NCBI GenBank assembly: GCA_964016885.1
Contig: OZ024762.1
Span: 19,406,001-19,470,000, forward strand
DNA length: 64,000 nucleotides
Reading direction: 5' to 3'
From: Eledone cirrhosa
Taxonomy: Eukaryota
Of this stretch, positions 5,752 to 48,645 are shown piece by piece. The translations under genes were made by a program, and so were the position numbers. Under the pieces are notes generated by a model. The model saw only the letters and a program-made list of their open reading frames with translations, had not been told where the DNA came from and did not search any database. Within the stretch, counting starts at the first letter, position 1. Each line of letters starts with the position of its first letter.

Positions 5752-6498
5752 TATTTATACATTATATATATATATATATGCCTCTGTGAGTGTGTGTATA
5801 TATATAATATCTTACAAACTGCCATAGAATATTTTGTATAGGTCACTAGGTTAAACATTGTTCGGTTTCTTCTTGTCTTTGTTAATATTTGCTGTTGTTC
5901 CTTGTATTTCTACTTTGAACTTCCCCATAAACCTAGTTTAGTATTTTAACCCTTTCTACCTCGAACTGCCTCCGGTTCTAGTGAAGCAAAGCTGTTTGTC
6001 TTGAAGTGTTTATATTTATGTAAAAGCCTTCCATAATTTTATGTAAGAATTTTCGTTAAGCTATCTTTCAAACACCAGCTTAATGAGAAAGTTAGTTAAT
6101 ATTACTAAAGCCCTCAATATTTTTGATAATGTTTAGAATGATTTGAAGATCATAGTGTCATTTATTAGAAATGTGATAATGCAAGAGATAAAGGGCTTAT
6201 AATTATCTCAAAACCTTACATCTTAATTTTATTTAATGACATATGTTATGTTCCAAACATCGGCTTAATAACGATAAAGTTACTTAAATTACTTAATCGC
6301 TCAAAACTCCTGTGTATTTCCTAAATTATTTGAAGATCGTATTTAGTGTCGTTTATTAGAAATGCGATGTTGCAAGAGTGAAAGTGTTTATTATCATCAT
6401 CATCATCATCATCATCATCGTCATTGTCGTTTTAACATCTTTCTTTGCTAGCATCAGTTGGATGGGTCTACCAGGGCGCTGAAAAGTTCCTGGCTTAA

Positions 6499-6710
6499 CC
6501 CATTAGCATTTAATCAACTGTATCCGGCCAGAATTCTCTCACCTCTTTCTGTTCCAACTGGCTGCTCATACTGACATTAAGCTATTGTTCTCAAAATAAA
6601 TAACAGCAAAATCTCATAGATTCGATATTTTGTGAGATAATTATGGGAGGTAAAGCCTTTACCGAGAAAATACAATAGTAAATATAGAGTAATGTGTAAA
6701 TGCTAAAGGG
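6499..6710 (+). mobile_element. piggyBac-type MITE inserted in the left TIR of the mariner-like element
   Basis: TTAA-CCCATTAGCATT...AATGCTAAAGGG-TTAA. Confidence 0.82.
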
Positions 6711-6719
6711 TTAAGGGTA

Positions 6720-7521
6720 TTGTGAAATGGTAAAGCTGTTTACCTCTACATGGGAGGTAGGACTGCTGCAATAAGTGTTGCGGAAGGGTAGAGCTGTTAG
6801 CTTTACAGGGAAGGTAGTACCGCTGCAATGTCACAAAAGGGTAGTGCTGTTACCTTTACATGGGAGATAGGACTACTGCAAATAAGTGTCACGAAAGTGT
6901 AGAGCTGTTACCTTTACATGGGAGATAGGACTACTGCAATAAGTGTCACGAAAGTGTAGAGCTGTTACCTTTACATGGGAGGTAGGACTACTGCAATAGG
7001 TGTCACGAAAGTGTAGAGCTGTTACCTTTACATGGGAGGTAGGACTACTGCAATAGGTGTCACGAAAGTGTAGAGCTGTTACCACTACAGGGGAGGTAGG
7101 ACTACTGCAATAAGTGTCATGAAAGTGTAGAGCTGTTACCTTTACATGGTAGGTAGGACTACTGCAATAAGTGTCATGAAAGTGTAGAGCTGTTACCACT
7201 ACAGGGGAGGTAGGACTACTGCAATAAGTGTCATGAAAGTGTAGAGCTGTTGCCACTACAGGGGAGGTAGGACTACTGCAATAAGTGTCATGAAAGTGTA
7301 GAGCTGTTACCACTACAAGGGAGGTAGGACTACTGCAATAAGTGTCATGAAAGTGTAGAGCTGTTACCACTACAGGGGAGGTAGCACTACTGCAATAGGT
7401 GTCACGAAAGGGTAGAGCTGTTACCTTTACATGGGAGGTAGGACTACTGCAATAAGTGTCACGAAAGGGTAGATCTGTTACCTTTACACGGGGGGGGGGG
7501 GGGGTAGGACTGCTGCAATAA
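6720..7521. repeat. 57-bp minisatellite (about 14 units)
   Basis: Unit tactgcaataagtgtcacgaaagtgtagagctgttacctttacatgggaggtaggac. Explains the 19-aa repeat ORF 6873-7559. Confidence 0.92.
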
Positions 7522-34133: not shown

Positions 34134-35156
34134 AGGAATTAAACCCGTGAACTTATGATTGTGAGTTCAATACTCTAACAACTAGGCCACAAACTTTCAC
34201 AAACTATTCTTTAGTTTAAGAACAACTCTTGGGTCCCAAATAATAGGAGGGTTGGTTGGAATAAGCTGCGATGTTGGAGTAAGTGGCGCAGTTGGAAAAT
34301 TGGTAATGTTTCTAGGTTGTCTCTGTTGATTTCTTTTGAAAAACCAGAATTAGTTGTTTTGTTTACATAGTGAGACCCCCAACCCATCTTATTTATCTTA
34401 TAACATATGGGATTTCTCGTAATGTACTTTTTTGTTGTATCAAAGTTGTTGCCATTGTATGTAAGTGTGTGTGTCTGTGTATATATATATATATATGATG
34501 ATATCTAAAGAATGAAACAGTTCTAGTCCTGTAGAATCTCATCTATATTAAAACTATTTGGATTGATAATGTTTTTTGAAAAAACTAATTAACCCGCGTG
34601 AATATTATTTTTTCTTTTCTCGTGTATTGGTTGTCTCCCCTTCCTGCTTCGTGACGCTATAATACTTCCTCAGTCAAAAACTGCTGGAATTTCAAATTTG
34701 GCGGTCATTTGATGCGTGAGGGAGCAGCTTAGCAGACACGATTTTTAACTGCGGTAAGAATTTTTTCTTATATCAAAGTTTAATGGGCTTCCACTGATGA
34801 TTTATAAGTGCCCACCTAAATATATTCTTACATGAATATATGTTAGGCTTCTACATAAACTGGAAACATTCTCCTAATTTGTAGAAAACTTATAATGAAA
34901 CAATTGTTTGGAAAGAGAGATATATTTTAACTTTAATTATATCTCATAAAATAATACAACTGGCTTTCCACATAATACATATAGTTAGCACCCAAACACT
35001 TAAATTGGATTAATACTAACATATAACCTAATGTTTGTTGAGTGAGATGGTTGCCAGTCAGAGTTTAGCTTTAAGCTATCTCTGTTATTGTATTAAATAT
35101 ATATATATATATATAGTTTTAATATAGATGAGATTCTATAGGACTAGAACTGTTTC

Positions 35157-35203
35157 ATTCCTGATGATTTCTAAAGAATGAAATAGTTCTAGTCCTGTAG
35201 AAT
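35157..35203 (+). ncRNA. Type I hammerhead (family A) within a fold-back (35116-35221)
   Basis: attc-CTGATGA-t-ttc-taaa-gaa-t-GAAA-tag-ttctagtc-ctg-TA-gaat. Truncated or degenerate relatives at 34495-34554 and 55545-55650. Confidence 0.75.
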
Positions 35204-35290
35204 CTCATCTATATTAAAACTTTTATACTCTGCTATGTATTGAGTACCTTACTTACTGTGGTTACCTCTGATTCAATCCGGAATAACTTA

Positions 35291-35437: not shown

Positions 35438-35631
35438 TAATATAGATCAGTTTTATAAATAAATATTGACATACCCTTAAAGAATGCAACCATTACTGTT
35501 GGAAGCTCTATGTATATGTATATATACGTGTGTGTATATATATGTGTGTGTATATAAATATATCTGTGTGTATATAAATGGAATAGAGTGAAACGAAATT
35601 TCATTTCTCACTCTTAGTACGGCACTTACTT

Positions 35632-36111
35632 AAATGTAAATATGCATGTATGTATACGTACATACATATATGTATACAGACGTACAGTAGTATGTATATA
35701 TATACATACATGCACACTTATATATATGCACGTATCGGTTTACCGAACATTTACTCGATATGCAAATTAGGCTGCTCAGCCGTTAATATGCATAAGGAAA
35801 GTATATACTTTCAGACGTTCAACCATCTGGCAGGAAGGTATACGATGCTGATGATAGCTAATAAGCTTGAAACTAGTACATCGTTCCTGTGTCAGTGTTG
35901 AACAAAAAGGTGACGTGGTTGCCTAAACACTGTACGGCGTAATTCGGGCTGTCTGTTTGTTTACAAACAAATAAACCGAGCATTATAATAAATGTTCGGT
36001 AAACCAATACGTGCATATATATATATGTGTGCATGTATGTATATATATACATACTACTGTACGTCTGTATACATATATGTATGTACGTATACATACATAC
36101 ATACTTACATT

Positions 36112-36112
<1 letters not shown>
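35632..36112. repeat. Inverted repeat (about 120-bp arms) enclosing a hammerhead
   Basis: 35632-35753 is the reverse complement of 35988-36112. Confidence 0.85.
35817..35903 (+). ncRNA. Type I hammerhead with extended, bulged stem I (family F)
   Basis: acgatg-CTGATGA-t-agct-aata-agct-t-GAAA-ctag-TA-catcgt (35842-35884). Stem I can continue as cagga/tcctg after a 6-nt bulge and out to gttcaac/gttgaac. Confidence 0.9.
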
Positions 36113-36159
<47 letters not shown>

Positions 36160-36497
36160 TATATATAAACATATATGTATATATATATATGTATATACAT
36201 ATGTATATGTATACATATATATATATATATGTATATACATATATATATATATATGTATATATATACATATGTATATACATATATATATATATATATGTAT
36301 ACATATACATATGTATATACATATACATATATATACATATATGTTTATATATATATATATATATTTATACACATATACATATATATAAACATATATGTAT
36401 ATATGTATGTATATACATATATATATATATGTACATATATATATGTGTACATATATGCATATATATATATACACATGTATACATGTGTGTGTGTGTG

Positions 36498-36558
<61 letters not shown>

Positions 36559-36753
36559 GTATACATATATATGTACATTATGTATTTACATGCGTGTATA
36601 TAAACAATCAATTAAGCTGATGCCATTTCGTTTGTAGTTTTTAAAAGAAAATTTAAGCATGATTTTATATTTTTCAGGTAATACATTTATTTCTAGGGAT
36701 TGGAACTTTGCCAGATTTCCATTTTGGCACTGTCTGTAAATGTTGTTTAGTTC

Positions 36754-46596: not shown

Positions 46597-48300
46597 TCAT
46601 CATCATCATCATCATCAACGTTTAACGTCCGTGTTCCACGCTTGCATGGGTTTGGACGGGGGTTTTCCCACTTGAGGCAAGAGTGATTATCTTGCTCGCA
46701 TAGGACTGTCTGGCGGGTTTTCTACAGCTGGATGCCCTTCCTAACACCAACCACATTTACAGTGTGGGGCTGGGAGGTTTTTACCGTGTTGCCTACACGG
46801 CCACATTACAGCGTGGACTGTCTGGCGGGTTTTCTACAGCTGGATGCCCTTCCTAACACCAACCACATTTACAGTGTGGGGCTGGGAGGTTTTTACCGTG
46901 TTGCCTACACGGCCACATTACAGCATGAACTGTGTGTTTTTTTGTCGTGACACCTACATGATCTCATTTGTTTCGGCCTGGATGTTGTGGCACCAACATA
47001 ACTTTACATTGAAAGGGGCGGTGTGGATGGGGTGGGGGTGGTGGGACGGGGGTGTATTTTGTTAGAGATGCCTACTGACTGTAGTAGGTTTTACTTTGTA
47101 TTTAGGTAAGGCGGGTCTTCTCTATTACTGAGTACCGCCAAAGGTCTCGGTCCAGTGACATTGTCTTGGTGAGGTGTAAGTGTGTGAGGTCGGAATTTAT
47201 CAGCTCGTCCCAGGTCTTTCTGGGTCTGCCTATTCCGTGGCTACCGTCTATCTTTATTGCCCTGCACTTTGTTATACAGCTATCGTCTTTCATGCGCATC
47301 ACGTGACCATACCAACGTAGCCTTCTCTCGAGTAAACAACATCTGATCCCTCTTATTTCTAATTTTTTCCTTAGTTCGTTTATGCTTTGCCGTTCACGTA
47401 TATTACTATTACACATCCAGCGGAGCATGCAAGCTTCGTTTCTCTCTAGTCTGCGTATATCCTCTGCACACAATGCCCAGGTCTCACTGCCATGCAACAT
47501 TGCTGTTCGTATGCAGGCATCATACAACCTGCCTTTCATTTTTAGGGAGAACCCTTTAGCGGCTAATAGTGGTATAAGCTCTCTGAACTTTTTCCATCCA
47601 GTTCTGACTCTAGCTACTGTACTTTCAGAGCACCCTCTCCCACTGCTGATTTTGTCACCCAGGTAACTGAAGCTGTCCACTATTTCTATAGAACCCTCTG
47701 CGCAGTTGAAAGAGCTAGTATTTTGTGGGCACTTGCTACTTATTGCACCAGAGCACCGGCCACATGTAAAATCTATGTTCTTAGTTAGCTTACCTGTGAT
47801 CCCACTACATCTTTTATGCACCCATACTTTGCATTTGGGACACAAAATGGAGTTTCTACCTACGCCTTTCCTACACACTGAGCATGGCCACTTCCCGGAA
47901 GGGACCGCCGCCTTATTTTCTTTCTTACAAACTAGAACTTTAGTCTTAGCCAGGTTAATTTTAAGGCCTTTTGATTCTAGGCCGTGCTTCCATGTTTGGA
48001 ATTTCTTCTCTAGCTCGGCCATTGATTCAGCTATGAGTGTTAGGTCATCTGCGTATAGGAGTTCCCATGGGCAACCGGTCTTGAACTCCTCTATTATAGC
48101 CTGAAGGGCAATAATAAATAGTAGGGGGCTGAGAACAGAGCCCTGATGGACGCCAACTTTTACGCTAAACTCTTCACTATATTTGTTGTTAATTCTAACC
48201 TTGCTGACTGTTTCTTTATACATGGCTTGTATAGCTCTCACAAGCCATTCGTCAACACCTAGTTTTCTAAGAGCCCACCAGATAATGGAACGGGGGACTC

Positions 48301-48304
<4 letters not shown>
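46597..48304 (-). mobile_element. 5'-truncated RTE-clade LINE
   Basis: RT ORF followed by a 3' UTR of about 500 bp, containing a 112-bp duplication (46704-46925) and ending gacgttaaacgtt(gat)n. The 5' break abuts (TA)n. Confidence 0.92.
47102..48304 (-). CDS. RTE non-LTR reverse transcriptase, C-terminal about 400 aa, uninterrupted
   Basis: DRVPRSIIWWALRKLGV, GVHQGSVLSPLLF, LLYADDL, YLG, RLRWYGHVMR and GRPRKTW motifs; no stop codon or frameshift; no start (truncated). Confidence 0.92.
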
Positions 48305-48346
<42 letters not shown>

Positions 48347-48645
48347 ATCACCATCATCATCATTTTACGTCCGCTTTTCCCTGCTTGCAAGGGTGGGATG
48401 GGAACTGATTCTGGCTTGATTTCTACAGCTGGATGCCCTTCCTAACACCAACCTCATTTACAGTGAGTGCTGGGTGCTTTTTTGCATTGGCACCTCCACG
48501 ACCACTTTGCAGTGGAATGATAGGGACCCCAGTCCTTATCATCTCATTTCTACAGCTGAGTAAACTGGAGCATTGTGAAATAAAGTGTCTTGCTCAAGGA
48601 AGCAACACATCACCCGGTCTGAGAATTGAACTCACAACCTTTCGA
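48347..48645 (-). mobile_element. SINE family 1, head truncated
   Basis: Near-identical to 4251-4560. Confidence 0.85.

Follow-up and report, generated by a model that had tools for sequence, protein, structure and literature searches.

Non-LTR retrozymes have been described from metazoans such as coral, mussel and axolotl (Cervera and de la Pena 2020, PMC7229834) as short tandem units of low GC content without an ORF, each carrying one canonical type I hammerhead; they form highly self-paired predicted circles, reach very high copy numbers, accumulate as monomer RNA in linear and circular form and coexist with Penelope-like elements (PLEs). That work states the mobilisation of animal retrozymes as open, with PLEs as "a strong candidate". 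A 2026 preprint (bioRxiv 10.64898/2026.07.22.740005) argues from co-occurrence and from the phylogeny of pLTRs, and treats the mechanism as still to be worked out. Hallmarks of PLEs are inverted 5'-truncated partners, a tail that is often found at one end and a bias towards (TA)n (PMC8557442, PMC3846280). The tail corresponds to the stretch that separates two internal RT starts of the PLE protein, which extends both strands of the target (PMC11167929). Non-autonomous Chlamys PLEs such as MRC1 (PMC8557442, PMC9977147) are multicopy, arranged head to tail, targeted to microsatellites and mobilised by PLEs.

The window analysed here, a stretch of 64,000 nucleotides from Eledone cirrhosa (contig OZ024762.1, positions 19,406,001 to 19,470,000) whose SINEs and microsatellites are of an octopod kind, contains at 35817..35903 (+) a type I hammerhead with an extended stem I, as delimited by the predicted fold and by variant columns. 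The hammerhead belongs to a non-coding tandem unit of about 440 nt with one type I hammerhead per unit, an organisation that fits a non-LTR retrozyme. The locus itself is very probably a truncated two-armed insertion of this high-copy retrozyme, likely written into (TA)n by the RT/GIY-YIG enzyme of a Neptune-type PLE.

The forward arm of the insertion (35751..36112, +; 1502-1863 of region L001) is a 5'-truncated unit (unit positions 314-441, then 1-227) which crosses the cleavage site and ends at a proximal site, S1. The inverted arm (35574..35753, -), mapped on a natural monomer, is a second 5'-truncated copy (unit positions 110-285) and ends at a distal site, S2. Both arms are joined head to head (5' to 5') with an overlap of 1-3 nt at 35751-35753, and are flanked by a TA/TG-rich target remnant on the left (35505..35573) and a (TA)n-rich target tract on the right (36113..36580). 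The stretch common to both copies constitutes an inverted repeat (left arm 35632..35753, right arm 35989..36112), identical in 119 of 124 columns. A sequence-only reading of this DNA had described an inverted repeat of about 120 bp around a 234-bp spacer, with arms of TA/CA-rich sequence; the repeat is real, but the spacer measures 235 nt and the arms are no generic TA/CA sequence, being unit positions 110-227 of the element. Overlooked in that reading were 57 further element bases beyond the left arm (35574..35631, -), the "tail" between S1 and S2 that is found on one arm only. Since the arms are element sequence in two truncated copies, the inverted repeat is not special to this locus; it is an insertion by-product.

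The copy number, to which the earlier reading had made no reference, amounts to tens of thousands of related copies genome-wide. A 35-nt core has 3,821 exact copies in the genome and a downstream 29-mer 13,541 (none for the reversed control in either case), while a relaxed core finds 28,547 related copies compared to 5 for its reversed control. A similarity search of the genome returned 1,957 candidates, and the 40 of these that were scored are 97-100% identical. Natural monomers, measured from cut to cut (n = 44), are 419-538 nt long, at or above the 150-450 nt range given for metazoan retrozymes (PMC7229834); the unit has a GC content of 37.9%, tandem arrays reach 7 units in the sampled loci, and no ORF longer than 75 aa was found inside the array checked. 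Circular monomers folded with z-scores of -7.2 to -9.4 (three of three), with the extended stem I closing the circle. Subfamily variants recur in contigs of four sequencing runs, which carry no information on ends or strand; low-depth rows from two further organisms (B and C) show these variants too and were left out of account. No RNA run is listed among those that contain the family. The element is of a known kind, to which the insertion statistics are a useful addition. No paper in the literature searched dealt with this family, with retrozymes of cephalopods or with retrozyme insertion scars; Repbase, Dfam and supplements, which lay outside its scope, may contain the family. The main text of a repeat paper on O. 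vulgaris has no occurrence of ribozyme, hammerhead or retrozyme. A tandem array of about 52 kb (G000:C3:12272037-12324202) contains at least 53 units with G for A at the cleavage position, outside the NUH rule, and is a satellite-like amplification of a ribozyme that is likely dead.

The ends of the arms were mapped in 168 regions (samples of 64, 74 and 30 regions, 16 overlapping loci having been dropped from the second), mostly from contigs C1-C3 and chosen by exact motifs. Among 279 arms, 111 end at S1 (203-232) and 118 at S2 (268-288), two sites 57 nt apart that together account for 229 ends; the other 50 lie elsewhere. TA adjoins the end in 214 of the 279 arms. Both ends fall on a site in 55 of the 84 head-to-head pairs (one pair being duplicated), and of these 51 are S1+S2, four are S1+S1 and none is S2+S2 (26/1/0, 17/1/0 and 8/2/0 in the three samples). 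The other 29 pairs, with an end outside both sites, were left uncounted. Arm length ranges from none to more than 3 kb and the inner junctions are scattered; 52 of the 84 pairs have overlapping junctions, several of them at internal hairpins with near-equal 5' positions.

These insertion features (inverted 5'-truncated partner, one-sided tail, (TA)n target) match the PLE type. EN+ Neptune-type PLEs (PMC8557442, PMC3846280, PMC11167929) resemble the family in several respects: partial tandems truncated at the 5' end, an inverted partner truncated likewise, a tail that may be present at one end, two internal start sites for RT, an AT-rich or (TA)n target and a template uncut at the hammerhead. 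They differ in that the retrozyme lacks an RT/GIY-YIG ORF, has a tail of 57 nt compared to 30-40 nt and carries a canonical instead of a minimal hammerhead. The one-site rule, near-strict here, is described for them only qualitatively ("often only at one end"), and in vitro the two strands did not differ. PMC7229834, in whose text "inverted" occurs 0 times, gives no description of inverted partner arms, a tail or (TA)n targeting for retrozymes. The Chlamys elements share 3' sequence with an autonomous family and are without canonical hammerheads, whereas here a short end motif alone is shared.

A genome search for GIY-YIG domains gave 10,597 candidates, 150 of which were scored; the genome holds PLE ORFs with RT, C-terminal GIY-YIG and a CX2-5CxxC linker, and a homologue search with the PLE protein returned 79 PLE-like proteins without useful names. 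No RT plus GIY-YIG ORF was found in the retrozyme unit. Two Neptune-type PLE families have ends at two sites next to (TA)n, with S1 and S2 on opposite strands in five of five loci of one family and five of six of the other, although each locus may not be one insertion. Three of the 168 regions join the retrozyme to 3' ends of autonomous PLEs: L011 (1930-2275) is a same-strand switch, and L140 (1510-2271) and L143 (1587-2323) are head to head without a PLE remainder on the far side. Their end classes, S2+S1, S1+S1 and S2+S2, respectively, are as expected if the one-site-per-arm rule binds only arms from one RNA (n = 3). The S2 end of the retrozyme shares a short end motif with the proximal end of PLE family L069. 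A comparison of the unit with the termini of 40 PLE loci, among about 10,600 GIY-YIG candidates, gave no longer homology. Since Neptune-type PLEs show the same end pattern and three joint loci exist, PLE machinery likely mobilises the retrozyme. Two further candidate links were rejected: the unit as a 3' pLTR of the L070 PLE (it follows a TA run and is missing from five sister copies) and L010 and L208 as PLE chimeras (the match belongs to another repeat). The Neptune-type PLE 3' termini of L056 (- strand, two copies), L063 and L069 carry a hammerhead with a U3-A8 core, a known variant (PMC4209133); in the L063 and L069 termini the GAAA stretch also reads GCAA. A short TA-flanked repeat (L067, about 6100-6800) has a terminal hairpin like the tail hairpin of the unit and often lies beside retrozyme copies.

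In 20 of 50 S1+S2 pairs, this locus included, the arm lengths rule out that one arm was copied from the other, in either order, so that in these both arms were presumably primed on RNA. Opposite arms share a variant haplotype (median of 2 differences compared to a background of 23; 37 pairs). Among 48 adjacent tandem units, 35 differ at no more than one diagnostic column. Both findings point to one source per insertion; the 10 of 48 that differ at 3 or more are not explained by a single circular template. Tandem arms with neighbouring units from different subfamilies occur in L154 and L152, suggesting mixed source arrays or template switching. Truncated 5' ends do not pile up at the cut (of the first 30 per set, 2 lie exactly there, whereas two control positions gave 7 and 5; raw counts were 182, 98 and 81, and 53 of the 100 entries listed for the first set came from one array), so that cut linear monomers are not the main template. 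The template would be either a circle or a linear multimer. The p 0.007 from a Fisher test, whose columns were counted by hand, is given no weight.

An inverted arm could also arise without a second priming on RNA, by self-priming or copy-back on one template, for which an antisense self-priming model has been put forward in Penelope elements of rotifers (PMC3846280), or by later fold-back of DNA. The overlapping junctions, the hairpins among them and the shared haplotype agree with this route, and the arm lengths of 30 of the 50 pairs allow it. In the other 20, however, each arm contains sequence missing from its partner, purified PLE protein extends both target strands (PMC11167929), and chimeric arms exist. 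Copy-back is thereby excluded as the sole route and unlikely to account for this locus, but possible for a subset of pairs.

The hammerhead itself is ordinary. Its extended stem I consists of a 7-bp outer helix, a 6-bp helix, 3 bp AGG/CCU, a 3x1 internal loop (loop 1) and the 6-bp stem I, ACGATG/CATCGT (35842-35847 and 35879-35884). The catalytic core, helix II, GAAA and helix III span 35848..35878 (+), with CTGATGA at 35848-35854 and the predicted cut after A35878. Core CUGANGA, GAAA and NUH are present, as are the features of type I (PMC4209133), namely helix I of 6 bp, helix II of 4 bp and a short palindromic helix III. The sequence-only reading had correctly identified stem I, the AATA loop, the palindrome ACTAGT, the GUA site with its predicted cut at 35878/35879 and the outer GTTCAAC/GTTGAAC helix. 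It had passed over a U-U mismatch at the base of helix II (10.1-11.1), on which 4 bp and the AAUA loop follow, and the make-up of helix III, a single A-U pair with a CUAG loop within ACUAGU. The 101-nt hammerhead region folds with z = -2.83. In the alignment of 148 family copies, the window copy departs from the majority letter of the column only at the free N7 among 87 positions, and is an ordinary family member instead of the "best-formed" copy it had been called. No Rfam family reached its gathering score at the locus; Hammerhead_HH9 (RF02275) aligned with 20.4 bits compared to a gathering score of 52 (E 0.007, 201-nt stretch), and E-value scans gave microsatellite-driven miRNA noise and this weak match, nothing else. 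HH9 shares type I topology, a 6-bp stem I, internal loop 1 and, if helix II is read with its U-U base, a six-base loop 2, but is a conserved single locus, whereas the present hammerhead has a short palindromic helix III and sits on a multi-copy mobile element.

The extension was examined in 168 cores, 148 of them ungapped over the 87-nt domain and 20 dropped as truncated or gapped. The supported register is stem I, UAU/U loop, AGG/CCU, CUGGCA/UGUCAG and GUUCAAC/GUUGAAC; each of the 11 columns that differ among subfamilies is unpaired or pair-preserving in it, including a two-sided change at one stem I pair (A-U in 52, U-G in 47 and G-U in 43 of 148 copies). The nine pairs of AGG/CCU and CUGGCA/UGUCAG are each kept in 141-147 of 148 copies. 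A 6-nt bulge followed by a cagga/tcctg helix had been proposed before; three of the five pairs of that helix are kept in just 92, 105 and 122 of 148 copies (broken in 26-56). Ten recurrent variants, which come from close relatives and thus represent few events, leave the supported register 100% paired and the cagga/tcctg helix 80%. Energies (-25.0 compared to -19.9 kcal/mol) and pair probabilities (0.55-0.72 compared to 0.18-0.28) likewise favour the supported register. The proposed extension was thus right in kind, with a 3x1 loop in place of the bulge. By its letters and variants, the hammerhead is of canonical-type type I with an internally looped, selected stem I extension, and tertiary contacts between loop 1 and loop 2 are plausible given this looped, conserved extension.

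As previously noted, the hammerhead is single-copy in the window, where it is the only member of its family. Twelve other hammerhead-like motifs, at 55 (-), 24322 (+), 35161 (+), 35429 (-), 52999 (+), 56134 (+), 56281 (+), 57435 (+), 59622 (+), 59936 (-), 60069 (+) and 60327 (-), belong to several other families, mostly with a palindromic helix III. Some stand in head-to-head pairs (56064/56134, 59936/60069) or in a hairpin (35110-35225), and the motif at 24322 matches the 3' end of PLE family L059. Between 34400 and 36600, TA tracts close to one another contain at least three different insertions with hammerheads, and 34496-34558 copies 35162-35224 at 95%. A LINE-type RT fragment of 420 aa with a PHD finger lies at 47102-48364 (-), which we take to be RTE-like.

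Had the locus held a uniquely well-formed hammerhead, active as a monomer and kept in a host hairpin, it might work in place, and the copy had been considered the one most likely to be active in vivo. In the local context the predicted fold contains stems I and II (p 0.55-1.0), the extension is selected in the family, and monomers cleave in invertebrate retrozymes (0.1-0.8 per min; PMC7229834) and in newt motifs, where looped helix I extensions permit it (PMC6155905). However, thousands of identical cores exist and the arms are element sequence. In ViennaRNA, the core CUG pairs with the UAG of helix III (p 0.74-0.92) at all four context lengths; pair probabilities are equal for 87, 359, 537 and 1,100 nt, so that the inverted repeat leaves the predicted fold unchanged. 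The active-like monomer (-19.6 compared to -26.4 kcal/mol) would cost about 6.8 kcal/mol. A dominant alternative fold, named beforehand as speaking against activity, is therefore predicted in two dimensions. The hammerhead combines the 1-bp palindromic helix III of axolotl HHR_Amex1 with the U-U base of HHR_Amex2, which separately mark motifs with 6% and 22% monomer cleavage and much better cleavage as dimers (PMC7229834); a palindromic helix III of the 1-bp type impedes monomer cleavage (PMC4209133). Since tertiary contacts, of which 2D energies take no account, can rescue monomers (PMC6155905), the copy may be active as a monomer despite the predicted misfold. A unique, locally working hammerhead is nevertheless improbable, and the claim of highest in vivo activity finds no support in a typical copy without a tandem partner. 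A lone hammerhead allows no cis dimer and no release of unit-length RNA; the locus falls below the two tandem hammerheads by which an "active" retrozyme copy is defined (bioRxiv 10.64898/2026.07.22.740005), while other loci carry 2-7. With one hammerhead, a predicted weak monomer, the copy is likely a dead end, and tandem arrays appear to be better candidates for in vivo activity.

The unit might also be the pLTR of an autonomous PLE and the copies its severely 5'-truncated forms. All insertion features are PLE-like, and Xenopus retrozymes match PLE pLTRs (bioRxiv 10.64898/2026.07.22.740005). Long arms, however, run on as tandem units (up to 7) and never into shared ORF-side sequence (43 single arms read on the 5' side), no pLTR homology was found in the 40 PLE loci examined, and the hammerhead is canonical rather than minimal, which makes this origin highly unlikely. 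A MITE or other DNA transposon with terminal inverted repeats of about 120 bp and a TA target would explain inverted ends in a TA context, but is refuted, with a negligible residual probability, by the variable arm length, asymmetric outer ends (S1 versus S2), scattered junctions and tandem units.

The proposed insertion of a retrozyme by a PLE enzyme builds on what is observed, namely the unit, its copy number and arrays, the (TA)n flanks, two fixed sites for the 3' ends, arms that meet head to head and use one site each, and no 5' pile-up at the cut. Tandem source arrays would be transcribed, their hammerheads would cut, probably as dimers via the palindromic helix III, and the monomers would be circularised, as suggested by the retrozyme literature. 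A PLE enzyme would then nick both (TA)n strands and prime two cDNAs inside the RNA, at S1 and S2. Both cDNAs would pass through the hammerhead site, which implies a circle or an uncut multimer as template; their ends would be joined by microhomology and their overlap would be the 120-bp inverted repeat. Several points speak against this course of events. The three chimeras involve two different PLE families and only one of the three follows the S1+S2 rule; the L143 junction lies at a TA run within the PLE, so that this chimera may go back to a nested insertion followed by loss. The dimer fold finds no support in the 2D model (double-hammerhead fold unpopulated, inter-hammerhead helix III p = 0.0 for the L008 dimer), and only one of nine retrozyme dimers cleaved in vitro (bioRxiv 10.64898/2026.07.22.740005). 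The divergent adjacent units (10 of 48) and the missing homology to the termini of 40 PLE loci also count against it.

More tentatively, and with somewhat less than even probability, a PLE enzyme dimer may bind a single RNA at two sites simultaneously, with one nicked strand serving as primer for each protomer; this would force the rule of one tail per insertion (51 of 55). Retrozyme circles would be its substrate, and about 28,000 insertions together with the chimeras would amount to genomic proof of PLE trans-mobilisation. If true, two-strand TPRT into (TA)n would have a minimal cis-acting substrate in the 440-nt unit. With a retrozyme family that carries countable PLE insertion scars and with candidate partner enzymes in the same genome, the mobilisation of retrozymes can be put to the test in an in vitro assay that already exists, and the one-site-per-arm rule constrains models of PLE integration generally.
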